From Patescibacteria group bacterium (GTDB lineage Bacteria > Patescibacteriota > Patescibacteriia > UBA1558 > GWA2-36-10): a DNA stretch of 64,000 bases. This document shows, piece after piece, positions 3,603 through 56,917 of this stretch. Each line of letters begins with the position of its first letter. The first letter of the stretch is position 1. The position numbers and the translations under genes are program-made. The DNA lies in NCBI GenBank assembly GCA_041662585.1, contig JBAZSG010000001.1:2381-66380 (forward strand), read 5' to 3'. The notes below the pieces were generated by a model. That model made no database searches and had not been told where the DNA came from. It saw only the letters and a list, made by a program, of their open reading frames with translations.

Positions 3603-3639
3603 ACACTTATATTAATTTATTTTATAAATTTTAAAATAT

Positions 3640-14479: not shown

Positions 14480-14488
14480 AAAATTTGT

Positions 14489-15712: not shown

Positions 15713-15744
15713 ATTATATAATATATAAATTCATTTTTAGCTTA

Positions 15745-16209: not shown

Positions 16210-16218
16210 AAAATAAAA

Positions 16219-16773
16219 TTATTTCCAAATTACTTGGTCAACCAACCATTTATCATCTACTTTTAATAAATCTACTTGCGTTTCTTGATAATAAACATTT
16301 TCTTCCAGTTTGGCATTGGTTTCTATTTTTTGGGTATTTACTAATATCTGAGCACTAGTATCATCTATCACTATAATCTGGGCGCTAATACTCTTGGTCG
16401 TCACACCTCTAAATTCTTCAGCACCAAAATTGAGTTTTATATTTTTTAAATAATTTTGCATTTTAACAGTGCTAAGAGACAAGAGCTCACTTAGATTTGC
16501 TCCTTGATTGTCAGTAGACCAAGATCCAAATCTAGCGACATAAGACTTGGCCAAATTGATAGCGGAAAACTCCGTAGGATCCTCTCCAACTACTTTAGTT
16601 GGATCATATTGTAATACTGTGCTAGGTGGTGTAAAAACTGGTGGTGGTGTATTGGTATTTTCATTGACAATTGGAGACTGATCTGAAGTTCTAAGCACCC
16701 AAAGTAAAAAAGCCAAAAGCAGTATAACAATGACTATGGCCAATAATATTTTTTTCCTTTTGTCTTCTTCCAT
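16219..16773 (-). CDS. Bitopic membrane protein, VirB8-like candidate (N-terminal TM plus ~150-aa extracytoplasmic domain)
   Basis: MEEDKRKKILLAIVIVILLLAFLLWVL anchor followed by an alternating beta-rich domain, directly downstream of VirB4. The assignment rests on position and topology only. Confidence 0.3.
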   Translation of the reverse strand: MEEDKRKKILLAIVIVILLLAFLLWVLRTSDQSPIVNENTNTPPPVFTPPSTVLQYDPTKVVGEDPTEFSAINLAKSYVARFGSWSTDNQGANLSELLSLSTVKMQNYLKNIKLNFGAEEFRGVTTKSISAQIIVIDDTSAQILVNTQKIETNAKLEENVYYQETQVDLLKVDDKWLVDQVIWK

Positions 16774-19896: not shown

Positions 19897-21300
19897 TTAA
19901 AATCTTAATTGCTTGTTCAAGTCAGATATAGCCGAAAATTCTTCTATAGTAAAAGTAGCTTTGTTATTTCTTTCACTTTCTTGTATAAATTCAGCAACTT
20001 CTTTACCAGCTATCATACTATCAGCGCCCAATTGTAAATACAGCTTATAAGCTTGACTACTTCTCCAAGCAGCAATGCCTTGGGCTTTTTTGGTATATGA
20101 CTCTTGTTCCAATAAATTAATTTTATCAAAAATCTTTTGAATTCTTTCTTTGGGTGTATTGCCCAAACGACGAAACCCAACCAAATCAAAAGATTTTAAT
20201 TCTTGTATTGGGCCAGTCAAAGCATCTTTTAAAGCAAAAGACTCATCTGCTTGCTTTTGTATTTCTTTTTTTGGTATTACTACATCACTAATCGGCTTTT
20301 TAAAACTTTGAGCGACTGTTGCTCTAGATACTTTTGGTAAAAATGTTTCTGTATTTTTTTGATTATCTGTGTCTTCAATTTTAGCTGCCGCTTCTTTTAT
20401 AGCCGCTTGCTTTTTCATCAAAGTTTCTGCAGATAACTCATGGATTGAGGCTTTTTTGATGGGTATTTCTTGATGGATATCTTCAGAAATAGCTGGAATA
20501 GAAAATCCTTCAGCTGGCTTGGATGTTTTTCCTAAACTTGATTTTAAATTGGCAGTATTTTTGATAGCCGCTTGCAAAACTGGATCAGTCTTTGTTTCCA
20601 AAATAGGTAATTCTCCTAAGGCTGCTTTTATCTCATCTTGAGCTGACAGTTGTTGGCTAGCTGAAGACTCCAACATAACCGCTGTTTTTTCTGATTTTGG
20701 TTTTTCAATTTTTAGTTCTTTCAAATCAGCTTGATTGACCACTAGTCCTCCGGCTAAATCAATTTTATTTTTAATACCTTTGATGATAGATAAAATATTA
20801 TCAATTACATTGGCTGATAATTTTTTATTATTTGATAAAACACTATTTACCAAAAGCTCCCGAATAATCACTGCACTTTTTCTGCTTCTAAAAAAATTAT
20901 ATAAAATATTAGAAAAAATCTTTTTATTTTTTTCATCAAATACTAAATTTTGTTTTTCAATAATACGATCAACTATCTTTTCTACACTATATTTTTTGCT
21001 ATCGTCTTGTGGTATATTTTTGGCAAAAAAATCAAGTTCTTCTTTGTCTTCAGGATGAAAAACAAGTTCTGCTTTATCTTGAGAGCCAGCATTAATATTT
21101 GGTATAGATAAAAAACTATCGTCCTTTGGTGCTAAATTTCCTTCAGAAACATGATTAATTTGAGAACCAATATCAACAGAATCAGTCTTTTTATTGGAAT
21201 TTAAATGCCCAAAATTGCCTTTTTCATCTTTAATCAAAAGAGCATCAGACCAATTATTAGTACTCAAAACATTTGCTACTTTATTATTTGAAAAATCCAT
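19897..21300 (-). CDS. Hypothetical Lys-rich soluble protein, first gene of the T4SS-like operon
   Basis: 467-aa ORF with no TM segment or signal peptide and a coiled-coil-like composition. It is 3 nt upstream of the VirB3-like gene. Confidence 0.4.
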   Translation of the reverse strand: MDFSNNKVANVLSTNNWSDALLIKDEKGNFGHLNSNKKTDSVDIGSQINHVSEGNLAPKDDSFLSIPNINAGSQDKAELVFHPEDKEELDFFAKNIPQDDSKKYSVEKIVDRIIEKQNLVFDEKNKKIFSNILYNFFRSRKSAVIIRELLVNSVLSNNKKLSANVIDNILSIIKGIKNKIDLAGGLVVNQADLKELKIEKPKSEKTAVMLESSASQQLSAQDEIKAALGELPILETKTDPVLQAAIKNTANLKSSLGKTSKPAEGFSIPAISEDIHQEIPIKKASIHELSAETLMKKQAAIKEAAAKIEDTDNQKNTETFLPKVSRATVAQSFKKPISDVVIPKKEIQKQADESFALKDALTGPIQELKSFDLVGFRRLGNTPKERIQKIFDKINLLEQESYTKKAQGIAAWRSSQAYKLYLQLGADSMIAGKEVAEFIQESERNNKATFTIEEFSAISDLNKQLRF

Positions 21301-22019: not shown

Positions 22020-22023
22020 AATA

Positions 22024-22242: not shown

Positions 22243-22261
22243 ATTAAATTTAAATTAATCT

Positions 22262-22729: not shown

Positions 22730-22747
22730 ATAATTGTATTAATAAAA

Positions 22748-23275: not shown

Positions 23276-23439
23276 TTTTCTATCTAATTACCTTGATCTT
23301 ACAATCAAGGGCCCCCGATGGTTAATACTGGGGCACGGTTAATTAAGATATATTAACTGCACGCAATTTACCATAATCATGAGCATAAGTCAATACTTAT
23401 TATATTGCACAAAAACACTATTTACACTATCATATAGCT

Positions 23440-24609
23440 ATGAATAAATATTTATTTATGCTTGGTCAGTCTCCTGACTTGGCTCAAGAAGAATTAAAAG
23501 CTATTTTAAGCTCCAAAAACGACCAAATAGAGCTGTATAACTCTGATTTTGTACTGGCCAATACTGACCAAGCAGCTAGTGACTTGATCAATGTTTTGGG
23601 TGGTACTATCAAAATTGCTCGTTATCTTCAAGCTATTGATAATCTCCATGATTTGAACGCTGATCTTTGGTATAGTTTTTTAGCCAAAAACCTTAACCCA
23701 AACCTTAAAAATTGCTTTGGTTTTAGCTTGTATAATGATACTAATGCCAATTATAATACAATACTAAAAATAGCTTTTAAATTAAAAAGAACATTAAAAA
23801 ACAATAATTATAAATGTCGCTTAGTCACTGGCCAAGACCCTGTACTCTCCTCGGTCATAGTAGCAAAAAATAAATTGATCGGCAGTGAACTATTGATTAT
23901 AAAATACCAAGAAAAATATATTTTGGCTCTGACAGAGGCTGTGCAAGATTTTGTGGCCTATGGTTTTAGAGATATGAAGCGTCCTCATCGTGATGACCGG
24001 AGTGGCATGTTGGCTCCCAAAGTAGCTCAAATGATGGTCAACTTGGCTGGAAATGATAAAAACAAAAACATTTTGGATCCTTTTTGTGGCTCTGGTACAA
24101 TACTACAAGAAGCTATGCTCTTGGGTTACAAAAAAATATATGGTTCTGATATTAGTCCCAAAGCCGTCAAAGAAACAAGTGAAAATCTTGACTGGCTTAG
24201 TAAAAATTTTCATCTAAAAGCTAATATCAAAATATTGGAATCAAGTATAGAAAATTTAGCCAATAATTTTGCTAAAAATTCTATAGACCTGATAGTCACT
24301 GAGCCATTTATGGGTGATGCACGCATCATCATTCGTCAAAATAATAGTCAGGATATAATCAAAATAAAAGACGAACTGCAAATGCTATATAAATCTGCTT
24401 TTACCAAATTCAAAAAAATAATATCTTCTGACAGTCTCATAATATTTATATTTCCTATTTTTCATATTTCCAATCAAGACATCTATACTCTAGATAAACA
24501 AATTATTTCCCAACTTGGCTTTAAATATCAACTAGACAAAGATATAATCTATAGTCGCGCCAATCAAAAAGTAGCCAGACAAATCACTGTCTGGAAACTA
24601 AAAAAATAA
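23440..24609 (+). CDS. THUMP-domain RNA methyltransferase (UPF0020/Trm14/RlmL-like, SAM-dependent)
   Basis: SAM motif I ILDPFCGSGTILQEA and motif IV-like DLIVTEPFMG, with an N-terminal THUMP-like region. Confidence 0.7.
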   Translation: MNKYLFMLGQSPDLAQEELKAILSSKNDQIELYNSDFVLANTDQAASDLINVLGGTIKIARYLQAIDNLHDLNADLWYSFLAKNLNPNLKNCFGFSLYNDTNANYNTILKIAFKLKRTLKNNNYKCRLVTGQDPVLSSVIVAKNKLIGSELLIIKYQEKYILALTEAVQDFVAYGFRDMKRPHRDDRSGMLAPKVAQMMVNLAGNDKNKNILDPFCGSGTILQEAMLLGYKKIYGSDISPKAVKETSENLDWLSKNFHLKANIKILESSIENLANNFAKNSIDLIVTEPFMGDARIIIRQNNSQDIIKIKDELQMLYKSAFTKFKKIISSDSLIIFIFPIFHISNQDIYTLDKQIISQLGFKYQLDKDIIYSRANQKVARQITVWKLKK

Positions 24610-24610
24610 T

Positions 24611-25867
24611 TTATATTTTATCTACCCAAGCAAATTTATTGGCTAATACTTGTATAGTACACCATTTAAATTTTTGATCTTGCTTATCCAAATACATCAC
24701 TTGCCCAGAATCTGCTCCTGTATTGGTCAGATAATAAATAGCGGCGTATAATTCATCAGCCGAAAATTTTAATTTTTCTACCAAAAGCATCTCCAAAAAA
24801 AGACGCAAAACTATAAGTTTTTCTATATTTTCATCCAAAGATCTCTCCATACTCTGACCAAACTTTATACCAATAAATCTCTTGAGTATGCTTTTATACC
24901 TAGAATCTTCTTTGATCATAAAATCAAAGGATTTTTTTTCTAGCAAAATTTTGAGACAAGAAATTGCCTTATATTTGTCTTCTACGCCAATAGCTTGCCA
25001 GAGTATATCCCTGACTTTATTTATATCATTATTAGCTTCAGAAAGTATCATATCACTAGAAGGCAAATTTTCTTGAAATAGATCTAAAGTATTTTTAAAA
25101 TTTGTCAAAACTTTTTCAAAAGACAACTCATAGTCATCATTATCTTCTTCTCTGGATTTTTTTTCTACTTGCTCTTTGACTATCAAAAGCCCATCTGATC
25201 TATCAAAATAAAGCTCTATATCTTCATCATAAGATAACAATAAAAAACGTAAACTATCCTTATATTTATCCTCTAGTTGTAAAGCATTTTTATTTTTGGC
25301 AATATATCTTGTCCTCTCCAAAGAGCTATGTTGGCCGGCACCCAAAAAATGTACATAATCCTTAATCCAATTTTGTACACTAGGGTTTGTTATCCTTCCT
25401 CTTTCATCTAATATCTTATTGGGTGTTAAACGAAAATCTTTGAATTCTTCATATTTTTTTAAGAGTTCTTTTACTTTTCCTTGAAAAATTTCTGGTAAAA
25501 CATCAGGTTCTACCACTTGTTTTTTCTTTAAAAAAACTGGCCTGGGCACTTTGCCTCCCAAACGCAAAATTAATCTATCCACTCCTCCGATATATTCTTG
25601 GAGTGGCCAAAATATTTCCATTGCCATTTGCAGAGCCAATTCTCTAAGATCTCCTTTAAATTCTCCCGGTATTTTTTCCAAATCTTTGGGCAGATCAAGG
25701 ATATTTCTTTTTTTGAGAATAATATCATCTTCCAATTTATTTACAAAATCAAATTGCTCAAAATTAAAAGAAAATTTATCATCTATAGCATAATTGACAT
25801 CTGCTACCTCAGTCCAAATAAAATCTTGTACTTCCTCTGGTAAAATATTTAAATCATTTATATTCAT
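24611..25867 (-). CDS. Hypothetical soluble protein, last gene of the giant-protein operon
   Basis: 418-aa ORF lying 10 nt downstream of the VirB6-like gene. No recognisable motif. Confidence 0.45.
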   Translation of the reverse strand: MNINDLNILPEEVQDFIWTEVADVNYAIDDKFSFNFEQFDFVNKLEDDIILKKRNILDLPKDLEKIPGEFKGDLRELALQMAMEIFWPLQEYIGGVDRLILRLGGKVPRPVFLKKKQVVEPDVLPEIFQGKVKELLKKYEEFKDFRLTPNKILDERGRITNPSVQNWIKDYVHFLGAGQHSSLERTRYIAKNKNALQLEDKYKDSLRFLLLSYDEDIELYFDRSDGLLIVKEQVEKKSREEDNDDYELSFEKVLTNFKNTLDLFQENLPSSDMILSEANNDINKVRDILWQAIGVEDKYKAISCLKILLEKKSFDFMIKEDSRYKSILKRFIGIKFGQSMERSLDENIEKLIVLRLFLEMLLVEKLKFSADELYAAIYYLTNTGADSGQVMYLDKQDQKFKWCTIQVLANKFAWVDKI

Positions 25868-25877
25868 TTACAATATA

Positions 25878-28800
25878 TTATTTAATCTTACTTAGGCTAC
25901 CTTTATCTACTGCGGCTGCTTTTTTCTTTGCTTCCCTTATAGTTATACCAGGTATTTCTTGCATAAACTTTTGTACATGCATCTGTACATACAATTCATT
26001 TCTGATGGTATCTGCCAAATTATCTGTAACGACTTTACCTAGTTTACCTCCTCCACCCACGATAGATTGAGCTAGAAGTTTTATTTGGTCTGAATTACCA
26101 GCTTGAAGAATTTGTCTTTGTTGATCAACTGTAGCTACTTTAGCCAATTCTTCAAACAAATGACGAGTATTTGGATGCTTAATATCCATTTCTTCTAGCC
26201 TTGAATAATCTGATCCATCTGTACCATTTTTTAATATAGCCCTAGAATAAAGATTCTTATTATTAGGATTGGTTAATCCAAGCTCTCTTCTCTTCAAAGT
26301 ATTTTGTAAACGTATTAAACTATTTTGCTCTGATAATAATTTTGAAACAAGCTTTTTATCAGGGTCTGGTTTAGCTTTTTCTGTAGCTATATCTTGCTTC
26401 AATTCTTCTATTCTAAGATTATTTTTATTATTTGGATCATTCAAGTCTTTTAATTTACTAGTAATAGCTTTTCGTAAAGCTTCAGCTTCTTTATCATAAT
26501 TTGCCTGATCAAAAACAAATCTATCGTTTTCTTTCTTCTGATCTCTCTTATGGTCTTTTTCTGCCTGTTTTTCCATTCTTTCTCTAATCTCGTTTCTGAC
26601 TCTTTCTTCTGCCTTTTCTCTTGACTCTGGTGGAGTGCCATCAAAACCAGCTTGTGTCTTTGGAGACCAAGCTTTCATCGCTTCTTCAACCTTTTCATCT
26701 AATTCATCTTCATCTATTTCTTGTCTTTGTACTGTTTTTGCCCGCTCTGGTCTTGGCCCTAAATTGGCCAAAATAGCAGCTTCCATATCAGCTATTATAT
26801 CTTCTTCCATGACCTTAAATACAGGTGATTCACGCAAACCTAATTTGGATTTTTCTACATAAGCCAATTCTTCTTCTAACCCTTTTCTTTCCTCTTTACT
26901 TAAACCAGTATTAGTTAATTTTACTTTTAATTCTGTTGCCTGTTCTTCTAATTTAACTTCCTCTTCTTTTATTTCATCATTGGTATAATGCCCCATGAGA
27001 TTTCTTCTGGTCTTATACAATTTGTCAGTCGCTTCTTTACCTTTGTCACTGTTTTGCCATTCTTCGTTATTTTTGTCCCATGCTTCTTTTGTTTTGGCTT
27101 TTCTTATTTCAAAATCTTTTTCAGACTCAAAAGAATTTTTAGCAAGATGATTTATTGAATCATTATCAAAATTGACTTCTCCACTATTAAATCCTTGTTC
27201 TAAGGCCCCTACTATAGCTTCGTGCAAAGCTTCGGCTTGTTCTGGATAAACTTGAAGAAGAGCTTCAAATAATTTTATAGCTTCATTTTGATCATTTGTA
27301 GAAAGAACTCCTTTGTTGTTATGTTTAGTCTCTTGACGCTTGGTTTCTAAATTTACTTCAGTAGCCAACATACCAAGATCTTTTTTGTCTTTAGCGGTTC
27401 CTCTGATACCATCTTTATCTTTTTTACCATATTTAATATCTGCTCCCTTCTCTGTATCATTATTTATATCTACCAAAACCTCCTCTCCTTCTTGACGAAA
27501 TGCTTCTGATTCAGCTTGCCTTGTCTTTTTAAATTGATTTAATACATCCCTACCAATACCTCCACCTTCATAATTTGGATCTTCCAAAAGAGCCCTGATA
27601 ATATTACGCATACCTGCTGTTGTTTTACCATCTTCGTCTAAAACACCATCAGCTTCCTTATCAAGCAATTTTCTAGAGCCAACATCATTTAGATCTTTTT
27701 TAACAGCCGCTAAATCTGTATTGGTATTTGCATATCGAGCATGTAAGGCATCAATCCTAGGTTGATCATTTATTCTCTCTAAAGCTTCAATATCCTCAGC
27801 TGCTTGTTTTGCATCGTGTTGTTCTTTTCTATCGGTTCTTATGATGGCTGCTTTTGTTTTTGCTTCATCATGTCCACCTCCCCAAGAAGTAATAAGCTGT
27901 GTCGCCCTCGCTACTTTAGAACTCTCTCCAATAGCCTTAGGTAAAAATTTACCAATTAACGGAATATCTTTTAATTTATCAGGTGTAGATGATTGAGTTC
28001 TATAAAATTCTTCTTTTTGTTTAGGATTAATATATTTGGTATCTTCCGCGTGTTCAGCAAGAATCCTAGCTGTGTTTCTACCTTGCATTTCCATAGCTCC
28101 TCTTTGCAGTTTACCTCCATAAAAAGGTACTTTGGTAGCAACTCCTGTAAATTTACCCAAAAGTGTATCCTTCTTTGGTTTTCCTTTATCATCTACCATA
28201 CGCTCAGCAATAGCAGTGCCGGCTCTCATAGCCAAAGCTTTTGGATAACGTCTAGCAATATGTCCAGCTGTGCTCTGAATTTTGGCCATACCCTTGGCTG
28301 CCACACTAGCTCCAGCCGCACCAGAAGCAGCTGCCATCTTAATACCCATCATAAGTAAGGCAATAGCAATGATATAATTCATCATATTACTGCTATCCAA
28401 AAATTCAGTTGCTCCTTGTGCCCCTCCTCCGGTCATAAAAGTACTATAGGCATTTCCATTGCCAACAATACTAAAAGTAAGCCACAAGAAAAAAGCCAAC
28501 ATCGGACCAGTTACCAGATTGGTACCTAGCTGTTTTGTCCAAGTATTATAAAAACTATTGGTAGCTGGAAAAATACTAGCCATAAAAGCCAAAGGAGCCA
28601 TAATAATAGCTATCCACAAAGCTACAATTCTCATCATCAACATCATAACCATTACGCCCACAATTACCACAAGTATTGCTACTAGAGCTGCTCCTAAAAC
28701 CATAGATACTACATAATCCCCAAAACCAGTAACAGGAGCATCGGGATTAATAGTGGTAAATTTATGCAAACCAATGGCGACCACCACTCCTCCTGACATT

Positions 28801-29264
28801 ATTTCATTGATAGCTGAAATAAAAGTAAGCATTATTACTTGTACCACATCAATAAAAAATCCCACAATGGTCTTGGAAAAATTTATCAAAATAGCCACAA
28901 GTATTGTACGTTTTAAAAGTTGTTGGTAACCATAACTGGAAATTCTCAGTATAGTCGCAAAAGAAATAACCAATAATATTAAAATAAAAAACATATTGGA
29001 CAAATCACGAAGTGCTATCCAACCCAATGTCACGCCTGCTTCATGAGTAAAACCATTGTAACTAGCCACAAGTTTCAAAAGTTCCAATTCCAATTCAAGA
29101 ATCCAAACAAAAGGTTGCATAAAAAATGTCCAGATTACACCACCTACTAGCTGTATAACAGCCTCTACAAGTGCCAAAGATTTCATGGGAGCCAAAGAAA
29201 ACAAACTCAAGGCAAGTACAAAATATTGCCATCTGATAGCTAGTTTATGTTTTTTAAACTTCAT
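25878..29264 (-). CDS. VirB6/TrbL-like polytopic membrane protein with ~700-aa charged coiled-coil C-terminal extension
   Basis: Residues 1-340 contain 7-9 hydrophobic helices with Gly/Ala-rich loops, as in TrbL/VirB6. The remainder is K/E/D-rich with heptad-like character and no Cys. Confidence 0.45.
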   Translation of the reverse strand: MKFKKHKLAIRWQYFVLALSLFSLAPMKSLALVEAVIQLVGGVIWTFFMQPFVWILELELELLKLVASYNGFTHEAGVTLGWIALRDLSNMFFILILLVISFATILRISSYGYQQLLKRTILVAILINFSKTIVGFFIDVVQVIMLTFISAINEIMSGGVVVAIGLHKFTTINPDAPVTGFGDYVVSMVLGAALVAILVVIVGVMVMMLMMRIVALWIAIIMAPLAFMASIFPATNSFYNTWTKQLGTNLVTGPMLAFFLWLTFSIVGNGNAYSTFMTGGGAQGATEFLDSSNMMNYIIAIALLMMGIKMAAASGAAGASVAAKGMAKIQSTAGHIARRYPKALAMRAGTAIAERMVDDKGKPKKDTLLGKFTGVATKVPFYGGKLQRGAMEMQGRNTARILAEHAEDTKYINPKQKEEFYRTQSSTPDKLKDIPLIGKFLPKAIGESSKVARATQLITSWGGGHDEAKTKAAIIRTDRKEQHDAKQAAEDIEALERINDQPRIDALHARYANTNTDLAAVKKDLNDVGSRKLLDKEADGVLDEDGKTTAGMRNIIRALLEDPNYEGGGIGRDVLNQFKKTRQAESEAFRQEGEEVLVDINNDTEKGADIKYGKKDKDGIRGTAKDKKDLGMLATEVNLETKRQETKHNNKGVLSTNDQNEAIKLFEALLQVYPEQAEALHEAIVGALEQGFNSGEVNFDNDSINHLAKNSFESEKDFEIRKAKTKEAWDKNNEEWQNSDKGKEATDKLYKTRRNLMGHYTNDEIKEEEVKLEEQATELKVKLTNTGLSKEERKGLEEELAYVEKSKLGLRESPVFKVMEEDIIADMEAAILANLGPRPERAKTVQRQEIDEDELDEKVEEAMKAWSPKTQAGFDGTPPESREKAEERVRNEIRERMEKQAEKDHKRDQKKENDRFVFDQANYDKEAEALRKAITSKLKDLNDPNNKNNLRIEELKQDIATEKAKPDPDKKLVSKLLSEQNSLIRLQNTLKRRELGLTNPNNKNLYSRAILKNGTDGSDYSRLEEMDIKHPNTRHLFEELAKVATVDQQRQILQAGNSDQIKLLAQSIVGGGGKLGKVVTDNLADTIRNELYVQMHVQKFMQEIPGITIREAKKKAAAVDKGSLSKIK

Positions 29265-29299
29265 ATTTATATAAGTTATTTAAAAACTATTTTTTAAAT

Positions 29300-32200
29300 T
29301 TATTCATCATAGACAACTATCCAGCCATTGAATGGCATGACTCGATACCAATACCAATTGTCCATCACTGTAATACTAGGTTGATAACATGAAGCATTTG
29401 GTATATTTGGTTTGAGTGGTGTACCAGGAGCTCCTCCAGCAGCACCATTGCAATCATGTTGTCTGCTAGCATCATAGGTATAGTCATGATAAAATATTTT
29501 ATAACCTGGACGACAAGCATCTTCTGTGCCAGCAAAACCCATTTTCTGAATTTCTTTGCCAATGGTTGTTGGATTGGCATCTCCTGGAGCATCTTTTTCA
29601 GGATTACAATATTCAGCTGGTAAAGAATTTTGATATTTACCTGGATTTGGAAGATTGTTGTCAATATCATCCCCCCAATTGGCCGTAATACTGTAAACTG
29701 GCATATGATCTGGATGGGCATGATAAAAGAATTTAACATTTACAAACAATGAGCCATCAAGACCAGTCAAAGTAGCACCTACAGTATTGACATCATTTAC
29801 CGTGATACCTTCTTTTACGCCTACTACATTACCAGCGGCATCTACTGTTTCACATAATGAATCACCACAGGTAGCCAAAATACGTGGTCTATAATCTGGA
29901 CCAGCATAAGGATTGGAATGATTACCAGCATTTAACTCAGGGGCATCAAGATATTGATAAGTACTAGAAGCGGCTATCCATTCAAAATTGTAAACTCTAA
30001 AAAATATACCTTTCATTTCCAATTGAGCAGCATTTAAAGCCTCGTCCAAAGTATTTACCAATGGATCGTAATTTCCAAAAAAAGTACCAGCAGTAATATT
30101 ATCATTACTTACTTTATAGTAAGGTACCCTAGTAGCCACCACTCTATTTTTAATAAAAGTATCTAAACCAGCACCAAAATGTGAAAAATTGGCTGGATAA
30201 CCGGAATCACTTGGATAACCAGTCAAACCAGATATCTGATTATACAACACTTCATCATCTATAGCATTTGGGTTGGAAGCGATATAACCATTTGTTGAAT
30301 TCCAATACCAAGAAGACCAAGGTGGCACTACAACTCTTTTGCCATCTTCTTTGTTTCTCCACCAAATATCAGTACGTAAAGCTGATTTCAATCCTTCACT
30401 GTCTAGCTGAGTAACTACACGACACTGTTGATAACAATCTAGAGAATTAATAACATCACAATTAATCCCTATGCTTATACTAGCATGTGTTATTGGAGAA
30501 TCTACTAAACTACAAGATTTACAAAATTTTTCTAAACCAGCTTCATCAACCTCCGTACCCCCTCCAAATGATCGTCTTGTAAAATTATCTTCATTATCAG
30601 TAAGGCACTTATCATAGACACTGGCATCATATATCCCCGCTGGTCCAAATGTATCATTGATATCACCAGCAACTATCCTAGCTGTAGCTGGATCATCATC
30701 ATGATCTTTGTTACTAAAACAAGCTATTGATTCAGCATACATTGCTTGACTAGATATATAACCATATAGATTAATTGGATCGTCTATATACTGAAAACAA
30801 TTATCGTAAAGACTACAAAAATGTGATTCATTTTGATTGCTAATAGTCAAACTTTCTATACAATCTACAAATAAACAATCGTTAACATTTTCGCTTGCCT
30901 GACATGTGGCTAAAGCAAAACCATTGGCTGCTGTAGCACTTGGATAGGAAGCTAAAATGCCAGAGTAAGTAGGTGATAAATTATCATCCTGCAAACAACC
31001 ACGACCATGATTGTAATCAAAGACAGAAACATTTATAAATTTGCAATCATCAGCACAACTACCTACATAACTTGGCTCTACTGGCTCAAATGTTTGTGGA
31101 CCACTATTTAAATCAACATAATAATTTTGACGGTACGGGTTATAATATGCTACTGTGTGTCTCCACTTATGCGTACCACACCAACCTCCCTTTTTACAAT
31201 ATTGATAAACAAGATGACCGTCATCATAAGCTATTGGTGCCGGACAATTACCACAGTCACTACTTGTAAGTCGCACTGTTGCATCTGGGATATTGACAAA
31301 AGCCGAACCACCGCTAGCTCCACTTGGTGCAACACCATCATCAAAATAAAAACGATGGATACCTGGACTAGCCAAATGCGTAGTATCAAACATAGTGTCA
31401 ATTATACCTACAAAATCCAATGTTGTTGGATAAACATTATTAAAATATGAAAATCTATCAAATTTTGAACCATAACCTTCGTAGGGAGTCAAAATAAGAT
31501 CTCTACCAACATTATTATCAGCGGCTGCCCAGATTGAAAAATCTTTGTCTTTTTCTATCCAAGTTCCTTCATCTAATAAATCACTATAATTAGCTGCTAC
31601 TTCAAGATTTATTTTAGAGCCAGCCGGGACTCTCATCAAAAGATTACACTGTCCTTCTTCGCTAGCTCGGTCAAAACGACCACAATAGTATCTATCTTTA
31701 GTAGTTACATATGGTTCGGATACTGCACAAAACAAAGCATCATATCCAGATGGTTCAAAATAACCAGCGGCTCTATAATTGTCATAAAGACTAGCTGTTC
31801 CTTGAATTTTTTGAGCTGGATACCATTGGTTACAATAATATGAACTTTCTATATCTTTTACTACTGACCGGCTAAGATCATGTTCCAAACAAATACCTGG
31901 CCAATTTTGATAGGTTATTTCTTCAGTTTTAAGGGCACAAAAACCATCATTTCTAGAGGTATTATCTGGATTTCTAGAATCACAATCTGAATTTTCTTCA
32001 CAAAAATTTGGATCCAATTTTTCCTGAGTATTAGGATCAACTCCAATAAGTTTTCCTGAAGTACAAATACCTTTTGGTATAGCATCACTATCTATATTGG
32101 CTGGATAATAGAAAGTTTTTTGACCAGCCCCATAAGTGACTTTTTTAAAGGAGTCTTCACAAGAATTTGGATTATCTAGGTCACTATTACAAATATTACC

Positions 32201-35200
32201 TTGATCATATTTGGATAATCTTTGTATGCCATCTGGCTCTATAGCAGCTGGAAAAGGTGCGTCAGCTACAGAATAAGCTCTGGTCTCTAAAGCAAAAGTA
32301 CTGGTAGTATTTTCATTGACTTTTGGGCTAACCCAACAAACTCGCTGTTGACATTCCCCCCTGAAAGTATAGGCTCCTTCTGTATTGATAACAGCTGTAC
32401 AAGATTGACCATCTAAAGAATTTCCAAACTCGTCAACACAAGCTTCATAATAACTACCCTCGTTGTCGGCACTATCAGTAACATCATAAACCAAGCGCTT
32501 GCCTTCTTTACCAGCTTCTCCAAAATCATAAACCAACAGATCACTAACTGGTAAAGTGTTTGGGATTGAATAACCAGTATACTCTTTGTCGCTCCAAGAA
32601 ATATGATTTTTTAAACCTGTATCACGAGATTGATATTTTTCAATAGTAAGAGCTTCTATGTCTTCGTCATAAGATCCCCATTTTTTACATTTGGTAGTAT
32701 TGCTGTCTGGATTATACTGAAATTCTAAACAAGTATCCAAATCATCACAAATTATTTTGTAATTACCGTCAGCATCTTTAACGGCCGTTGAAGATTTACA
32801 AGCCAACCACTCAGAACATTGTCTGTCTTTGTTTACTTTTATCAGTCTGTTGGCATTTAAATTGCAAGTAGGATCAAAACTAGGATCACAAGTCACTGGA
32901 CTATTGGCTTTGTTGTCTACTTCTACATTTTCATAAGTTTCATCTGCATCATACACAGTGCCAACTTGACTATGCTCTCCGTTCCAATTGTTGGCATCAT
33001 AAAACAACACACAACCATTTTGCCTATCTACTAGACCATTACAAGATGTTTCGTCAATATTATCTTTGTCATAATAGTAATAATCTTTACAATATGCTGT
33101 CCATGACCAACCAGCATTAGTACAATCTCGTTCATTGTTAAATATATCTGACGCACAATAACCATCACGACTAGGGAAAACCCAAGTCTGTCCTGGATTG
33201 GCCTGACAATTTACTTGATTTACGGAAATTTTATTTTTGGATATATTATCAATACAAAAACCATCATAATCTATAAAATCTATATTTCTTCCCTTTGGAT
33301 CACAGCCTATTGGATCAACTGGATCTTTAAATGAAGTACACAAATCTTCACTAGCTGGACATTGAGCTGCTTTTAAATAATTGTTCCAATAAGGAGTGGT
33401 CCAAGTATAAGCGGCATTGGCCTCACAATCCGCTTGGTTTTCAAATACTTGATTTTGACTTACATTTTCTATACATATATTGGTTGATTCGCAATCATCT
33501 TTGGTAAACAAAGGTAGTTGTATAGGATTTGTAGCTGAAACACTACAATAATCTCTAGGCAATATCAATTCTTCTACATCATACAAACCGTCACCATTGC
33601 TATCAGGATTATTGTCTGTATCTATACAACCAAGCGGTATCTCGTCACCCAAAGAAGTGGTTTTGAACCAGCCTGATAATAGACTATTGCCATCTACCAA
33701 AACATTTTGTTGATAAGTACACGTATTTAATCCTGGATCTTTGAGATAAAAAATACCTTTGGCTGTGTTGTATTCAGAACAACCCAGACCCTCTGAACTA
33801 CACAATATAGCACTATATTTATCTGGGTCATTTATTTTATAAACTGTATCAAATTTTGTATTATCCAATCTATCTGGTAAACCAAGCTCTGTACAACCCT
33901 TGAGATCTTTGGAACAATAATTGTTTGGATCTGGTACTAGATAAGTAAGGCTATCAGCAGCTACAATAGTCTCTGCATAGTCACCAGCATTAAATGTTTC
34001 GGCAAAAGGATTGCTAGAATTGTGTGTATCTATAGCTGGCATACAACCAATCACTTCTTCTCGACACAAATGATCAAAAGATTTCAAATCAAAGTCTTGA
34101 CCATTCAAATCTCGATATGACTGACAACCCAAGTGATAACCAGTATAAGGAGTATCACAAGACAATGGTGTATTCCAAGAATTTCTAATAACAGAGAAAT
34201 TATTGGCTACTTCCTTGATTATAAAATTGTCTATATACAATCCCTGATCAGGCAAAGGAGAACTGGTATCAAGTTGAAATTCTAATTGATTAATCTTGCC
34301 TATAACTAATGAATCTAGATTATCTAAATAAGTAGAAGTTTTATAATAATGCCAACGACCTGGCTCAATATTTTGAAAAGTACTATCTATAGCTGGATCA
34401 ACAAAAGCTTTTATGAGTGTGTGTCCCTCTGTATCACTACCCCATAAGTTTAAAGAAAAAGTATCAACCACCGCATCACTCTTCATCCACCAACTTATGG
34501 TATATTCTTTATTATTTTGTAATAACACATCCAACACATCTCTGACAAACAAACGTCCTGTTTCGGCTCGCAAAGAATGTCCGTTGTTATTTAAAGACTC
34601 GTTGGACAAATCTAGGCTACCAGCCCCCGCTGGACGCCAAGGAGAGTAAGTGCCATTTTCAAAATTATCACTTAAGACCAAGCGCACATTATTGGCATTA
34701 TTGCCATTATAGGCACTGCAACCATTGTTGGCTTCGGCACAATGTATACTTTCTTCTGGTACTGCTTTATATATTTGATCAGTAGCTGTCCGACGATAAT
34801 CATGACAATTGTCTGTAGCAAAAATCACTCTATCTTGGAATCTATAATGAGCATCACCATCCACATCAAAAAATTCTCTACAATTTGGATCATTTTCAGG
34901 ATCATCACTAATATCTGCTGTATCTGCTCCACAAGCCGCTACTTCATGCTCTTCACTAATACCATTGTCTGTAAAAGCTACATCCAAACAAGTACTACCA
35001 GCCGTATTCATATTGGTACATGGCGCATCACTTAAATTACTACTGAGTGAATACCAAGTTTTGATTTGATAGCCAGCTACTTCTGTACCTTCCCAAGTAT
35101 AGTAAACCGTGCCCAAAGATTCCTCTACGCATTGTCTGAGATAAGTAAAATATTCTTTACCTTCTCCGCCCTGAGCCACCACATCAAGATTGGTAAATTC

Positions 35201-38065
35201 TTCACAGCCCACTTCTTGAACAGGACATTGTGTAGCAGTATCATTTATAAAATTATAATATTTAGCTGAATTGTTGCCTTCTATAATATCAAAAATATTT
35301 AGCTGTTCGGCAAAAGTATCATAGCCCACGCATTCAGCTGGACATAAGTCACCTTGGGTGATGACTGCTGGAATCATTGGGTCGCCATTGTCTGGAAGAT
35401 ATCCCTGACAGCCGACTTCATCAGCTGAGCACATCACTTTGCCACTATCCATATATATTTTTGCTCCTTGACCATAATCAGAATAATCACTAAGAGTCGT
35501 ATCATCTAAAGAAGCTATCACCTCTAACTTGAGATTATCAAACCAGTTTGCCGCTGTAAGAGAATTATTGCTAAGAACCGCTACTTTGCCAAAAGCAGCT
35601 CTACCATTGGTCATAAATGTACAAGACCTTCTTTCCATATCAATGCTAGCTGGAAAGAAATTGGCTATAGCTACCATATTGGGATTTCCGCCTGAAGTTA
35701 AATCACAAGTACCGGCAGTAGCAGCTGCCTGGGAAGTGGTATTGGCACAGTTGCCATTATCATCACACATTTGTAAGGCTATACGAGCCTCATCATTTCT
35801 AGTATCGTCATATTGAGCCGCCTCACCAGACAACCTATACATAGTATTTGGTCGTAAAGTCACCTGTATATCCACTGCCTCTCTAGTTGGATAACCCTGG
35901 GCAGCAGTACCAAAAGAATAACCATTGGGTAGCCTATTACCATCATAATCCAAAGGCACATTATTTATATTATTAGCTCCCGTCGGATCATCAATACCAT
36001 CTCCCTTCCAACCATCGGGAAAATTGTCTCCATTTAAATCATCAAAACTACCATTGGGTATTAGATTGGCTCCTGTATTGGGTGCTAAAACAATATATTC
36101 CGAGCAACCAGCAGCATCAGCTTTACAATCTACGGCTTGATTGTTTAAAAATAAATCATTGACATCGTTGGCTATCTCTCCCAAAATCCAATCTCCAGTT
36201 CCATCCTTATCTCGAGAATAACGACTACAACCAGCTTGATTGGCACTACAATATTCTAAAGTATCTTGAATATAAGAATTGTTGCCAAAATCTTTATTGA
36301 CAAAAGTAAGACAACCAGCATATATCTCACCAGCTGCACAAGCTTGATCTGAAAAATTCCAAGTATTTTCACTACGAGTACAATAATTAAACTGATCATC
36401 CAAACAATTACCCTCAGCATCTTCAATTAAACATATTTTTGGATCAGCACAATATTTTTGACGAGTACTGCTATCTGGTGATTCCAACAACGAAGAAAAA
36501 GCATAGGCTTCACAGCGTACATCTGGTGCTTTTAAGACCCAATTTGGATCCACCAAATGATAAAATGGATTATGATCATTACCATCTACAGCAAAAGAGG
36601 CTGAACGATCAAAATCACAATTTGATTCACTTTCCTCAAAACAATCAATAGCTTGTTGCAAACTCACTGGTGCTCTGAGTGCCGCCAACTCCCAGCCAAC
36701 TGGAATAATATTGGCTTTTCTTAATTTGACCAAATTAGAATAGCAAAGCCCATCTCGATAACATTTATCAACTGTATGATTAATGGCATCATTGGCATTT
36801 ACAAATTTTGTATCACCCTTGATCATGCCTTTATCAATGGCTTGCTGAATAGTTATTTTACTATTTACGGCTTGTAAAAAAGCTGGACTCATCACACAAT
36901 TTTCTGGACCTCTAAACTCATTTGTACAAATAGCAAAATCATTGATATAATCAAAATCTTCTATTGATTCAACACTAACTGTTTTAAAACCTTTAAAAAT
37001 GTCTTTGCCTCTTGGTTGTCGAGTATCAGAACCACCTCTTAATTTATCCAGTAAAGTAGCTCTAGTATTTTGATAAAGATCATCATCCTCGCCATTGCCA
37101 AATAAAGACCACATACCTTTCTTGATCCAACCACTCATCAGCTTGGAAGTAAAAGTATTGACAAATCTATTACCAGCGTCTTTTAAAATTTGAGATAAAT
37201 TTTTTTGCGTAGCCGCTTCTCTGGCTGCTATTTTTTTGTCTTCTTCTGCTTTGGTAGCATTGGTAAATAAATCTCTAGCCAAACCATAAGTGACTACACA
37301 ATGAGTAATGACTTCTTCTGAAACAGTAGTTTTTTTATCTTTAAAACCTTGACATTCTGCAGCCGAAATTTGTTCAATTTGCAAAGCTACTTGTTTTCTA
37401 CGATTTATTTCAGCGGCCAATTCCATAGCTATACCCACATCTGAGCCTTTTTTGGAGACTATACCATCAAAAAAATCAGATGTACTAGTAACACCACTTC
37501 TTCTGGTATCCAGTTGAAATTTTACAATATTGGCTTGCATAGTATCTCCAAAGTCTACCCAGTTTTTTCTCAAAGTACTCCAAGTACATTTTGATGCAGC
37601 TGTCTTTTTTGGTGGAGCATCTTCATCAAGTAAATTTAAAGTCAAAGAAAGTTTCAATTCTACTGAAGGATCACAAAGATCAATGCCTAGTTGATCAAAA
37701 CCCTTACTGGTTAAATCACCAACAAATTCACCCAAAGCTTTGTCGCCAGCATTCTCCAAAGTCTTTTTTAAAGACACTGTTCTAAACATAGGTTTGCCAC
37801 CAGTGGCACCAGCAGCCAATTCACTAGCTACATCATAAGCCAAATTATCTAAATATTGATCAATAGCTTTTTTGGAAAGTTGGTCTGAGATTGATTCTTT
37901 AGTAACTTCATAAACATCCTTAATTCTTTCCCAGATAAATTTTACTACTGTTGTTGGACCTCCAATAATATCAGAAAAAGCATTGGCTGGCCGTGGAACA
38001 AATATTGCTCCAAAAACAAAAACGGCTAGGCAAAGGGTAAAAATAACTTTTTTGTAATTAGTCAT
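29300..38065 (-). CDS. Giant secreted Cys-rich protein (2921 aa) with signal peptide, jelly-roll/CBM-like segments, a TSP3-like Ca-binding motif and internal Cys-module duplication
   Basis: Uninterrupted 8.7-kb ORF. Signal peptide MTNYKKVIFTLCLAVFVFGAIFVPRPANA. More than 150 Cys spread throughout. DTDNNPDSNGDGLYDVEEL at about 33600-33660. Duplicated ~35-aa Cys module at about 33180-33500. Confidence 0.75.
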   Translation of the reverse strand: MTNYKKVIFTLCLAVFVFGAIFVPRPANAFSDIIGGPTTVVKFIWERIKDVYEVTKESISDQLSKKAIDQYLDNLAYDVASELAAGATGGKPMFRTVSLKKTLENAGDKALGEFVGDLTSKGFDQLGIDLCDPSVELKLSLTLNLLDEDAPPKKTAASKCTWSTLRKNWVDFGDTMQANIVKFQLDTRRSGVTSTSDFFDGIVSKKGSDVGIAMELAAEINRRKQVALQIEQISAAECQGFKDKKTTVSEEVITHCVVTYGLARDLFTNATKAEEDKKIAAREAATQKNLSQILKDAGNRFVNTFTSKLMSGWIKKGMWSLFGNGEDDDLYQNTRATLLDKLRGGSDTRQPRGKDIFKGFKTVSVESIEDFDYINDFAICTNEFRGPENCVMSPAFLQAVNSKITIQQAIDKGMIKGDTKFVNANDAINHTVDKCYRDGLCYSNLVKLRKANIIPVGWELAALRAPVSLQQAIDCFEESESNCDFDRSASFAVDGNDHNPFYHLVDPNWVLKAPDVRCEAYAFSSLLESPDSSTRQKYCADPKICLIEDAEGNCLDDQFNYCTRSENTWNFSDQACAAGEIYAGCLTFVNKDFGNNSYIQDTLEYCSANQAGCSRYSRDKDGTGDWILGEIANDVNDLFLNNQAVDCKADAAGCSEYIVLAPNTGANLIPNGSFDDLNGDNFPDGWKGDGIDDPTGANNINNVPLDYDGNRLPNGYSFGTAAQGYPTREAVDIQVTLRPNTMYRLSGEAAQYDDTRNDEARIALQMCDDNGNCANTTSQAAATAGTCDLTSGGNPNMVAIANFFPASIDMERRSCTFMTNGRAAFGKVAVLSNNSLTAANWFDNLKLEVIASLDDTTLSDYSDYGQGAKIYMDSGKVMCSADEVGCQGYLPDNGDPMIPAVITQGDLCPAECVGYDTFAEQLNIFDIIEGNNSAKYYNFINDTATQCPVQEVGCEEFTNLDVVAQGGEGKEYFTYLRQCVEESLGTVYYTWEGTEVAGYQIKTWYSLSSNLSDAPCTNMNTAGSTCLDVAFTDNGISEEHEVAACGADTADISDDPENDPNCREFFDVDGDAHYRFQDRVIFATDNCHDYRRTATDQIYKAVPEESIHCAEANNGCSAYNGNNANNVRLVLSDNFENGTYSPWRPAGAGSLDLSNESLNNNGHSLRAETGRLFVRDVLDVLLQNNKEYTISWWMKSDAVVDTFSLNLWGSDTEGHTLIKAFVDPAIDSTFQNIEPGRWHYYKTSTYLDNLDSLVIGKINQLEFQLDTSSPLPDQGLYIDNFIIKEVANNFSVIRNSWNTPLSCDTPYTGYHLGCQSYRDLNGQDFDLKSFDHLCREEVIGCMPAIDTHNSSNPFAETFNAGDYAETIVAADSLTYLVPDPNNYCSKDLKGCTELGLPDRLDNTKFDTVYKINDPDKYSAILCSSEGLGCSEYNTAKGIFYLKDPGLNTCTYQQNVLVDGNSLLSGWFKTTSLGDEIPLGCIDTDNNPDSNGDGLYDVEELILPRDYCSVSATNPIQLPLFTKDDCESTNICIENVSQNQVFENQADCEANAAYTWTTPYWNNYLKAAQCPASEDLCTSFKDPVDPIGCDPKGRNIDFIDYDGFCIDNISKNKISVNQVNCQANPGQTWVFPSRDGYCASDIFNNERDCTNAGWSWTAYCKDYYYYDKDNIDETSCNGLVDRQNGCVLFYDANNWNGEHSQVGTVYDADETYENVEVDNKANSPVTCDPSFDPTCNLNANRLIKVNKDRQCSEWLACKSSTAVKDADGNYKIICDDLDTCLEFQYNPDSNTTKCKKWGSYDEDIEALTIEKYQSRDTGLKNHISWSDKEYTGYSIPNTLPVSDLLVYDFGEAGKEGKRLVYDVTDSADNEGSYYEACVDEFGNSLDGQSCTAVINTEGAYTFRGECQQRVCWVSPKVNENTTSTFALETRAYSVADAPFPAAIEPDGIQRLSKYDQGNICNSDLDNPNSCEDSFKKVTYGAGQKTFYYPANIDSDAIPKGICTSGKLIGVDPNTQEKLDPNFCEENSDCDSRNPDNTSRNDGFCALKTEEITYQNWPGICLEHDLSRSVVKDIESSYYCNQWYPAQKIQGTASLYDNYRAAGYFEPSGYDALFCAVSEPYVTTKDRYYCGRFDRASEEGQCNLLMRVPAGSKINLEVAANYSDLLDEGTWIEKDKDFSIWAAADNNVGRDLILTPYEGYGSKFDRFSYFNNVYPTTLDFVGIIDTMFDTTHLASPGIHRFYFDDGVAPSGASGGSAFVNIPDATVRLTSSDCGNCPAPIAYDDGHLVYQYCKKGGWCGTHKWRHTVAYYNPYRQNYYVDLNSGPQTFEPVEPSYVGSCADDCKFINVSVFDYNHGRGCLQDDNLSPTYSGILASYPSATAANGFALATCQASENVNDCLFVDCIESLTISNQNESHFCSLYDNCFQYIDDPINLYGYISSQAMYAESIACFSNKDHDDDPATARIVAGDINDTFGPAGIYDASVYDKCLTDNEDNFTRRSFGGGTEVDEAGLEKFCKSCSLVDSPITHASISIGINCDVINSLDCYQQCRVVTQLDSEGLKSALRTDIWWRNKEDGKRVVVPPWSSWYWNSTNGYIASNPNAIDDEVLYNQISGLTGYPSDSGYPANFSHFGAGLDTFIKNRVVATRVPYYKVSNDNITAGTFFGNYDPLVNTLDEALNAAQLEMKGIFFRVYNFEWIAASSTYQYLDAPELNAGNHSNPYAGPDYRPRILATCGDSLCETVDAAGNVVGVKEGITVNDVNTVGATLTGLDGSLFVNVKFFYHAHPDHMPVYSITANWGDDIDNNLPNPGKYQNSLPAEYCNPEKDAPGDANPTTIGKEIQKMGFAGTEDACRPGYKIFYHDYTYDASRQHDCNGAAGGAPGTPLKPNIPNASCYQPSITVMDNWYWYRVMPFNGWIVVYDE

Positions 38066-38081
38066 ATGATATATTAGCTTT

Positions 38082-38903
38082 TTATTGTTTTGTTAAGTCT
38101 TCAGCAACCATCATCAATTCTTCATCTGACATAGCATTTATTTCTGCCGTATCAATGCCTGGTAATAATAATAAAAACTCTCTAATTTGATCTGGAGTAG
38201 TGCTAGCATTTAGCTGAGTATTATCCAAAATAGCACTCTCATCTACTATTCTAAAAATAGTCAAAAGATCTTGATCACTTAAAGCATCTAAGTCTTCTTT
38301 TGCCATACCATTGGCTTCCAAAAACTTCCTAAATTCTACCACGGCTGCTTGTTGAATAGTGAGGTTAGGATCAAGAGTAATATCTTCAATAATACTAGAT
38401 AATTTTGTATTGGGAGTGATAAGCCTTAATAAATTACATGACTCACCAATGGGACAAATAGGATCTTCGCCTAGGCCCACTTCTTCAGCATCTGTAAAAC
38501 CATCACTATCTGTATCTGGCAAAAATATACTAGTATAATATTGATAAATTTCTTGATAATCTGTAAGACCATCTTGATCTGTGTCACTCTCTTTTAGTTG
38601 AGCAATAGTCCTAGCCACTTGTTCTTCTGTATCCAATTGATTTTGTAAAAACTCAGGCACTTCATATTTTAAGGGATCAAATATATTACTATAAAATCTA
38701 AATCCAGCTAAAACCAATATAAACATCCCCAAAATTAAAAAAGACCAAAATTTTATGTAGCGATGGCTTTGTGAATTTTTATAATCATCATTAGCTATAT
38801 AATTATGACTAACTAGAGCATCTTGCTCTAGTGTTTCCAAATCATTATTTTTATCAAATTTTTCAATCATTGAGTTTATTAATGTGTATATATTATAACA
38901 CAA
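38082..38903 (-). CDS. Membrane-anchored protein with two thrombospondin-type-3-like Ca-binding motifs
   Basis: TM segment FWSFLILGMFILVLAGF followed by DTDQDGLTDYQEI and DTDSDGFTDAEEV (DxDxDGxxDxxE). First gene of the giant-protein operon. Confidence 0.55.
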   Translation of the reverse strand: MCYNIYTLINSMIEKFDKNNDLETLEQDALVSHNYIANDDYKNSQSHRYIKFWSFLILGMFILVLAGFRFYSNIFDPLKYEVPEFLQNQLDTEEQVARTIAQLKESDTDQDGLTDYQEIYQYYTSIFLPDTDSDGFTDAEEVGLGEDPICPIGESCNLLRLITPNTKLSSIIEDITLDPNLTIQQAAVVEFRKFLEANGMAKEDLDALSDQDLLTIFRIVDESAILDNTQLNASTTPDQIREFLLLLPGIDTAEINAMSDEELMMVAEDLTKQ

Positions 38904-38958
38904 AATTATAAAATACCCAAAGGATAAAAAATCCTGATCAGCTTATATTCAATAATTT

Positions 38959-56914: not shown

Positions 56915-56917
56915 CTT

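Follow-up and report, generated by a model that had tools for sequence, protein, structure and literature searches.

A TSP3-type membrane protein and a giant cysteine-rich secreted protein form a conserved gene pair in a type IV secretion locus of Patescibacteria

In a 64,000-nucleotide stretch of DNA from a Patescibacteria group bacterium (contig JBAZSG010000001.1, positions 2,381 to 66,380; hereafter the window), four adjacent minus-strand genes encode a membrane protein with thrombospondin type 3 (TSP3) motifs, a giant cysteine-rich protein, a VirB6/TrbL-like protein with a long tail, and a soluble protein of 418 amino acids (aa). This region is the upstream half of a chromosomal type IV secretion system (T4SS) locus of the monoderm type (MPF-FATA-derived), from a Komeilibacteria-like member of the Patescibacteria class ABY1. 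The 1128-aa product is a VirB6-type polytopic subunit of the T4SS. The giant, which is exported by Sec and rich in disulfides, contains lectin-type modules, and its gene forms a near-obligate pair with that of the TSP3-type protein. Judging from sequence features and gene order, it is somewhat likely that these two proteins constitute a surface module, exported by the Sec pathway, that binds host glycans and works together with the T4SS.

Identification of the T4SS locus

A first-pass annotation of the sequence had linked the VirB6-like gene to a T4SS, and the genes found downstream bear this out. PrgI/VirB3, TrsD-like and VirB4 genes are located on the same strand 5-8 kb downstream of the VirB6-like gene, behind a block of housekeeping genes, and VirB4 is also found downstream in relatives. 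The conserved gene order was derived from 80 loci that were retrieved from GTDB genomes with a VirB6 profile. The consensus is KsgA - TSP3 - giant - (F6, ~200 aa) - VirB6-like - F0a - [housekeeping inserts] - F0b - PrgI - TrsD - VirB4 - p184 - (F10) - RadA, where F0a is the family of the 418-aa protein. VirB4 was identified downstream of the VirB6-like gene in 43 of the 50 loci with enough sequence. For instance, the compact locus L163 comprises KsgA, TSP3-like, giant, VirB6-like, F0a, F0b, PrgI, TraC-like and VirB4 genes, and its giant is ~28% identical to that of the window. The closest named relative of the window locus belongs to a Candidatus Komeilibacteria metagenome-assembled genome (MAG) of the class ABY1.

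The family of the 226-aa TrsD-like protein is conserved in 51 loci, and its homologue in loci L001/L002 carries the TraC-like domain PF26593. The 184-aa protein encoded downstream of VirB4 consists of an N-terminal transmembrane (TM) segment and ~150 further residues; its family is conserved at this position in 35 loci, and it is a possible analogue of VirB8. Against T4SS_pilin (cut-off 26.6), the 296-aa protein (13589-14479) reaches 17.6 bits, and its signal segment and two TM segments amount to a VirB2-like topology. The F10 open reading frame (ORF) family recurs after VirB4 and p184 in 14 T4SS loci, and its L001/L002 member is annotated as DsbA/thioredoxin-like (L001:18989-19729), which would fit the need of the giant for disulfide bonds; no F10 or DsbA-like gene was recognised at that position in the window. 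No Pfam match to a relaxase or a coupling protein was obtained among the ORFs scanned, which were part of the window's ORFs. RecG adjoins the T4SS locus.

The VirB6-like subunit

For the 1128-aa protein, the earlier description of a VirB6/TrbL-like polytopic N-terminal domain is supported by homologues, by a profile match in the PDB and by a fold match. Eight hydrophobic segments are located in residues 14-313, and the polytopic domain comprises residues ~1-340. About 50 homologues of this domain were found, all of them in Patescibacteria, and many carry a precomputed match to PF19590 (TrbL_3). A comparison with PF04610 (TrbL), which had been proposed as a check, gave a divided outcome: the relatives P0030 and P0038 pass the cut-off of 25.9 bits with 26.9 and 27.2 bits, and the window protein itself does not. 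A profile built from 20 N-domain sequences had a single match in the whole PDB, namely TrwI/VirB6 of plasmid R388 (E = 0.026). Structure prediction, likewise proposed as a check for both this domain and the giant, was successful for the VirB6-like domain, for which AlphaFold2 modelled residues 40-340 confidently at a predicted local distance difference test (pLDDT) score of 85-97, and poor for the giant, as described below. In a Foldseek search of the PDB with the N-domain model, the seven highest-ranking matches were all to chains of TrwI from the R388 stalk, the first of them with a probability of 0.98 and a TM-score of 0.53. The Pfam, PDB profile and fold lines are each marginal alone, and VirB6 homology is accepted because they converge on one protein.

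The polytopic domain is followed by a tail of ~790 aa (residues ~340-1128). As noted in the first reading of the sequence, it is free of cysteine and rich in lysine (11.9%) and glutamate (10.9%). AlphaFold2 predicts it as all-helical, including one helix of 64 residues; this supports helicity as such rather than a coiled coil. Immediately past the last TM segment the tail is rich in K and R, and by the positive-inside rule it is therefore probably located in the cytoplasm, in line with its lack of cysteine. The suggestion that it might span the envelope or reach a partner cell is unlikely, given this K/R-rich start and the fact that such lengths are standard. The 66 complete proteins of the VirB6-like family have a median length of 900 aa (range 589-1475), and SEML1_0013, the essential VirB6 homologue of the Saccharibacteria species Southlakia epibionticum, has 1088 aa and a C-terminal domain of helical repeats. 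"Extended VirB6" proteins are in fact a recognised class (PMC12857230).

The giant protein and its TSP3-type neighbour

The giant carries a canonical cleavable Sec signal peptide, in agreement with the first-pass annotation, and this signal is conserved in homologues (PxPAxA). Its cysteines number 111 (3.8%), not the more than 150 initially reported, and they are invariant across 65 aligned homologues. The jelly-roll or carbohydrate-binding module (CBM)-like segments described earlier correspond to two jelly rolls of the CBM4/9/16/22 kind at residues ~660-860 and 1129-1290. One CBM_4_9 domain lies above the Pfam threshold, and in both sequence and fold it is a carbohydrate-binding, galactose-binding-like beta-sandwich. 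The jelly rolls are flanked by a motif, C-x5-6-G-C-x2-[YF], that occurs in 8 copies as compared with 0.35 expected from shuffled sequences. A calcium-binding motif was also claimed for the giant, of which only the partial form DSNGDGLYD at residue 1488 could be located, with no full motif. Besides the signal peptide there is no TM segment, and the protein has neither an LPXTG-like motif nor a C-terminal TM anchor. A repeat adhesin was considered and rejected, as comparison of the giant with itself by BLAST revealed no internal repeats.

The giant belongs to a large family with at least 1,351 clusters at 50% identity (E <= 1e-3), of which 1,099 are retained at E <= 1e-30. Most of the 150 best-scoring representatives are 2,500-3,300 aa long, and the shorter ones may be fragments. 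Conservation is strong over residues 1-1450 and 1700-2100, and the segments 1500-1650 and 2150-2550 are variable. The possibility of a pseudogene, raised for this ORF, can be discarded: the reading frame is intact, 84 homologues have a similar length, and two independent MAG assemblies yield an uninterrupted 2921-aa product that differs by one residue. The 8.7-kb gene occupies ~1.2% of the 702-kb contig that carries it.

Outside the jelly rolls, little of the giant resembles proteins of known structure. A phmmer search against the PDB gave no match, and a profile of 16 full-length giants gave just two weak CBM matches there (E = 0.5-0.7). Scans of all four proteins against Pfam and NCBIfam yielded only CBM_4_9 and a near-threshold TSP3_bac match. 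The AlphaFold2 model of residues 1-1200 is mostly of low confidence (mean pLDDT 55.9), and the jelly rolls are the only part of it to which a fold could be assigned. The N-terminal ~330 residues are helical and poor in cysteine, and were modelled below pLDDT 50.

The TSP3-type protein had been described as membrane-anchored with two DxDxDGxxDxxE motifs, and both features were confirmed: a single TM segment spans residues 48-75 (numbered from the TTG codon), and the two exact motifs are DTDQDGLTDYQE and DTDSDGFTDAEE. In the predicted topology, a short N-terminus lies in the cytoplasm, and the TM segment leads to an extracellular domain that contains the two putative calcium-binding TSP3 motifs. 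The Pfam family TSP3_bac (PF18884) matches with 24.6 bits, just below the cut-off of 25, and the NCBI name of the 262-aa form is thrombospondin type 3 repeat-containing protein. This form starts at ATG 38870, which is the likely start codon and that of the public annotation. The upstream TTG at 38903 is an unlikely start because it falls inside a perfect extended -10 element. A second protein in the window, of 499 aa (45621-47120, minus strand), has a weak TSP3_bac match (18.1 bits) and partly clusters with the TSP3 protein family.

The counts given here for the TSP3-type protein and below for KsgA were taken from 80 metagenome loci centred on the giant. A homologue of the TSP3-type protein is encoded directly upstream of it in 70 of 72 loci. 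The two genes are hence a near-obligate pair.

The soluble families F0a and F0b

The 418-aa product was described as soluble and of no known kind, which holds: it lacks both a TM segment and a signal peptide, and it gave no match in Pfam, NCBIfam or the PDB. Genes of its family, F0a, always follow the VirB6-like gene. A second soluble family, F0b, is encoded by the first gene of the second T4SS operon, and profile-profile comparison revealed a domain of ~90 residues common to the N-termini of F0a and F0b (hhalign probability 95%, E = 4e-8). This relationship was seen by that method alone, as BLASTP of the 418-aa against the 467-aa protein detected no similarity. In three related loci the two are fused into one protein of ~600-640 aa. 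Neither family contains a TM segment, and their profiles had no meaningful match in the PDB or Pfam. F0a and F0b, whose genes always border this part of the locus, look like cytoplasmic accessory factors specific to the T4SS of Patescibacteria, and they may work with the VirB6 tail.

Relationship between the giant and the T4SS

The first-pass annotation expected the giant and the secretion genes to be co-conserved in relatives, and the locus comparison agrees with this. In 39 of the 52 VirB6-centred loci, the VirB6-like gene is preceded by the giant on the same strand. We lean towards the reading that the TSP3-type protein and the giant form a Sec-exported surface module that would bind host glycans and work with the T4SS. 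The two would be exported independently, the TSP3-type protein by membrane insertion and the giant by Sec. Outside the cell they may form a disulfide-stabilised, calcium-dependent assembly, in which the single-pass TSP3-type protein could tether the anchorless giant to the membrane. The CBM-type lectin modules and the variable segments of the giant may bind glycans of the host envelope and so bring the T4SS into position at the host cell. In this respect the giant would be analogous to the PrgB-type adhesins of Gram-positive conjugation or to the VirB5 tip on VirB6 in R388. On the cytoplasmic side, the helical VirB6 tail may be a docking scaffold, possibly for F0a and F0b.

A bolder version of this reading is conceivable but doubtful. 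The pair might be the missing extracellular part of the monoderm-type T4SS in ABY1 and Paceibacteria, that is, a host-recognition organelle, stabilised by calcium and disulfides, that docks on the VirB6 ring and replaces VirB5 or PrgB. The lectin modules and variable segments would set the host range, and the organelle would position the channel for uptake or delivery of macromolecules.

Several observations weigh against a functional tie of the pair to the T4SS. The main caution is that synteny in Patescibacteria genomes also binds unrelated genes. KsgA is the clearest case: this housekeeping gene is equally syntenic, being found within 6 kb of the giant in 58 of 62 loci, and all genes of the locus, KsgA included, follow the species tree. 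When the giant-centred loci with at least 2.5 kb of downstream sequence were inspected, a VirB6-like gene was detected in 21 of 45, a lower bound, since the downstream sequence of these loci reaches no further than 4-5 kb past the giant. In L164 there is no VirB6-like gene within 5 kb of the giant, and in L165 it is 9.5 kb away. Housekeeping genes are inserted within the T4SS locus itself, and Saccharibacteria have an essential T4SS without such a giant (PMC10633639). The functional link between giant and T4SS is drawn from gene order only, and the poor model of the giant leaves most of its 2,900 residues without an assigned fold. For the VirB6-like protein, the window sequence falls below the Pfam TrbL threshold with no match even at E <= 10, and its PDB sequence and fold E-values are marginal (0.02-0.03).

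The pair could instead be a surface module in its own right, for example a general adhesin, a structural protein of the envelope or of an S-layer-like kind, or a scaffold for glycan harvesting, with its place beside the T4SS an inherited gene order. This alternative is less likely but deserves serious consideration. The order KsgA-TSP3-giant is stricter than the order giant-VirB6, unrelated genes break up the T4SS locus and follow the giant in L164 and L165, the Saccharibacteria T4SS lacks the giant, and large Cys-rich extracellular proteins have been noted in other candidate phyla radiation (CPR) lineages without a T4SS link (PMC4736985). Yet, both in the window and in many relatives, the four genes lie on one strand with spacers of 10-35 nt, with a promoter-like element before them and a terminator-like one after them in the window. 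Moreover, the genes for giant, (F6), VirB6-like protein, F0a, F0b, PrgI, TrsD and VirB4 are still contiguous in distant lineages, and a VirB6-like gene follows the giant even in L165.

It is improbable that the giant is itself a physical part of the conduit, i.e. a stalk or tip on the VirB6 ring that replaces VirB5, VirB2 or VirB9/10 and carries substrates across the cell wall to the host. In its favour, R388 has a stalk with VirB6 at its base and VirB5, a Sec-exported protein, as its cap, the chains of that structure (7o3v) are the best fold matches of the VirB6-like domain, and the giant gene sits just upstream of virB6. In addition, the helical, Cys-poor N-terminus and the non-repetitive, mostly conserved sequence of the giant family are more typical of a machine part than of a repeat adhesin. 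Against this, no sequence or fold similarity of the giant to VirB5, VirB2, VirB9 or VirB10 was found, although the low pLDDT of its N-terminal region limits the fold comparison. Its only recognisable domains are the lectin-type jelly rolls, and the T4SS of Saccharibacteria works without it.

Export of the giant by the T4SS as a substrate or effector, one of the options first raised, is very unlikely: only its adjacency to T4SS genes speaks for it, whereas the protein has its own conserved cleavable Sec signal peptide, which in a monoderm is enough to take it out of the cell. Moreover, oxidative folding in the extracellular space is implied by the 111 invariant cysteines, and the strongly conserved architecture of the giant is unlike that of effectors.

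Organization of the locus and other genes in the window

The four genes were initially described as minus-strand ORFs separated by 10-35 nt; the ORFs are intact and the gaps are 16, 35 and 10 nt (Table 1). All four products have exact matches among the public proteins of two "Patescibacteria group bacterium" MAGs, where the first bears the name thrombospondin type 3 repeat-containing protein and the other three are annotated as hypothetical. At 38900-38892, 22 nt upstream of ATG 38870, the sequence contains a perfect extended -10 element, TGnTATAAT. The promoter-like element that includes it is only suggestive of an operon start after ksgA, and the hairpin 3' of the 418-aa gene is a candidate for the operon end. 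Since a consensus scan for promoters and terminators found such sites to be not enriched over shuffled sequence, these operon boundaries remain suggestions.

Table 1. Coordinates, in the numbering of the window, of the genes and putative signals of the T4SS locus
Feature	Position	Strand	Evidence
Promoter-like element, TTGGGT-17 nt-TATAAT with TG extension	38892..38920	(-)	Read directly from sequence
TSP3-type membrane protein	38082..38870 (mechanical ORF to TTG 38903)	(-)	ORF, TM segment, motifs
Giant secreted protein, 2921 aa	29300..38065	(-)	ORF, signal peptide, CBM match
Extended VirB6/TrbL-like T4SS membrane subunit, 1128 aa	25878..29264	(-)	Homologues, profile, fold match
Soluble 418-aa protein, family F0a	24611..25867	(-)	Locus comparison
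Terminator-like hairpin followed by T-run	24575..24594	(-)	17 nt past stop codon of 418-aa gene
F0b, soluble, 467 aa, first gene of second T4SS operon, upstream of PrgI	19897..21300	(-)	Locus comparison
PrgI/VirB3-like membrane protein, 158 aa	19417..19893	(-)	Pfam PrgI, 43.1 bits (cut-off 27)
TrsD/TraC-N-like protein, 226 aa	18720..19400	(-)	Weak TraC_F_IV match, E = 0.035
VirB4-type ATPase, 636 aa	16810..18720	(-)	Pfam P-loop_TraG, E = 6.8e-28, and AAA_10
Four membrane or exported proteins downstream of VirB4 (184, 154, 407 and 296 aa)	13589..16773	(-)	

The window has a G+C content of ~33%, and its housekeeping genes are of the type found in reduced genomes (LeuRS, KsgA, S6, SSB, EF-P, IF-2, ClpB-like and RecG). 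The block between the two T4SS operons (21462-24609) consists of a plus-strand methyltransferase gene followed by S6, SSB and EF-P. The closest relatives (L003-L012 and L083-L096) share this insertion, and more distant lineages carry other inserts at this site, including one whose product starts with the S-adenosylmethionine synthetase signature GHPDK. The F6 family (~200 aa, with a charged N-terminus and no Pfam annotation) is encoded 3' of the giant and 5' of the VirB6-like gene in 48 loci (L001 and L013-L082; e.g. L024:9279-9896) and is absent from the window's lineage.

Near the T4SS locus, a plus-strand gene (44414-45547) encodes a cell-wall hydrolase of the architecture LysM-LysM-Peptidase_M23. 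Similar hydrolases serve as VirB1 substitutes in the T4SS of Saccharibacteria (PMC12102498). In L165, the genes that separate the giant from the VirB6-like gene also include one for an M23 peptidase. At 55709-58570 on the minus strand, the window encodes PilB (T2SSE, E = 1e-125) and PilC (T2SSF) of type IV pilus assembly, and several small ORFs downstream of them may be pilins. Adjacent genes at 1275-5136 (minus strand) encode proteins of 775 and 498 aa without a Pfam match at E <= 0.001; faint beta-roll and adhesin-repeat matches were seen for the 775-aa protein.

Significance and comparison with known systems

The role of the T4SS in Patescibacteria has been described as completely unknown (PMC11665869), even though the system is essential in the one species tested (PMC10633639). 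The giant family is large and unnamed, and its genes lie beside VirB6 in many lineages outside Saccharibacteria, which makes it a concrete candidate for the part of the system that touches the host. If it is that part, the family would be a candidate determinant of host specificity in an uncultured radiation. If the link is merely syntenic, the family would still be among the largest conserved investments of these tiny genomes and would deserve a name and a structure.

The window locus is similar to the MPF-FATA-related T4SS of Patescibacteria in its content of VirB4, TrsD-like, PrgI/VirB3 and VirB6-like proteins and a possible VirB2-like pilin. It is likewise chromosomal, with KsgA nearby and RecG adjacent, as reported for the class ABY1 (PMC12102498). 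That 2025 survey of the phylum (Quinonero-Coronel et al., PMC12102498) described VirB6 homologues near virB4, KsgA in the vicinity, and recG/radA in ABY1 loci, and it detected neither adhesins such as PrgB nor any extracellular component in the T4SS loci of Patescibacteria. In a Saccharibacterium the T4SS was found to be essential (Wang et al. 2023, PMC10633639). The VirB6-like protein of the window resembles SEML1_0013 of S. epibionticum in its size class of ~1000 aa and its helical C-terminal domain. In place of a giant, the locus of Saccharibacteria contains peptidoglycan hydrolases together with an array of pilins.

With TrwI/VirB6 of R388 (7o3v, 8rt9, 8rtd), the 1128-aa protein shares a polytopic helical fold and linkage to virB3 and virB4. 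However, the identity is only ~15%, the E-values are marginal, and the C-terminal extension of 790 aa is absent from TrwI, which has 342 aa. Unlike the R388 machine, the system of the window belongs to a monoderm host and has no VirB7/9/10 outer-membrane complex. TcpH of Clostridium perfringens plasmid pCW3 likewise combines a VirB6-like domain with a large hydrophilic C-terminal domain. The VirB6 paralogues of Rickettsiales are also built from a VirB6-like polytopic domain and a large hydrophilic C-terminal domain (PMC12857230). The tail of the VirB6-like protein has no detectable sequence similarity to those of these extended VirB6 proteins, and here a tail is the rule across a phylum-level group.

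In Enterococcus plasmid pCF10, the genes for the surface adhesins PrgB, PrgA and PrgC are located upstream of prgH (VirB6), prgI (VirB3) and prgJ (VirB4). The giant is comparable to PrgB-type adhesins in being a large Sec-exported surface protein whose gene lies just upstream of VirB6-VirB3-VirB4, with a presumed role in cell contact. This likeness is functional only, as no sequence or fold match to PrgB was found. The giant also differs from it in lacking an LPXTG sortase anchor, in being more than twice as large and disulfide-rich, and in containing CBM jelly rolls rather than PrgB-type domains.

Large Cys-rich extracellular proteins have been reported from Peribacteria, with a mean length of 1,655 aa, a cluster of 14 genes and no reported T4SS link (Anantharaman et al. 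2016, PMC4736985). Compared by description only, they are similar to the giant as large CPR proteins with a signal peptide, a high cysteine content and a proposed role in attachment, but they are shorter and belong to another lineage.

The first-pass annotation held the gene combination to be uncharacterised. For the T4SS this is not the case, as VirB6, VirB4, PrgI, TrsD and the nearby KsgA have been published (PMC12102498, PMC10633639). For the TSP3-plus-giant pair the claim stands: neither the pair nor F0a and F0b appear in these two papers, in which the terms "giant" and "TSP3" occur 0 times, or in the reviews and literature searched. The T4SS with its extended VirB6 is thus already known, and the TSP3-plus-giant pair and the F0a and F0b families are probably new.

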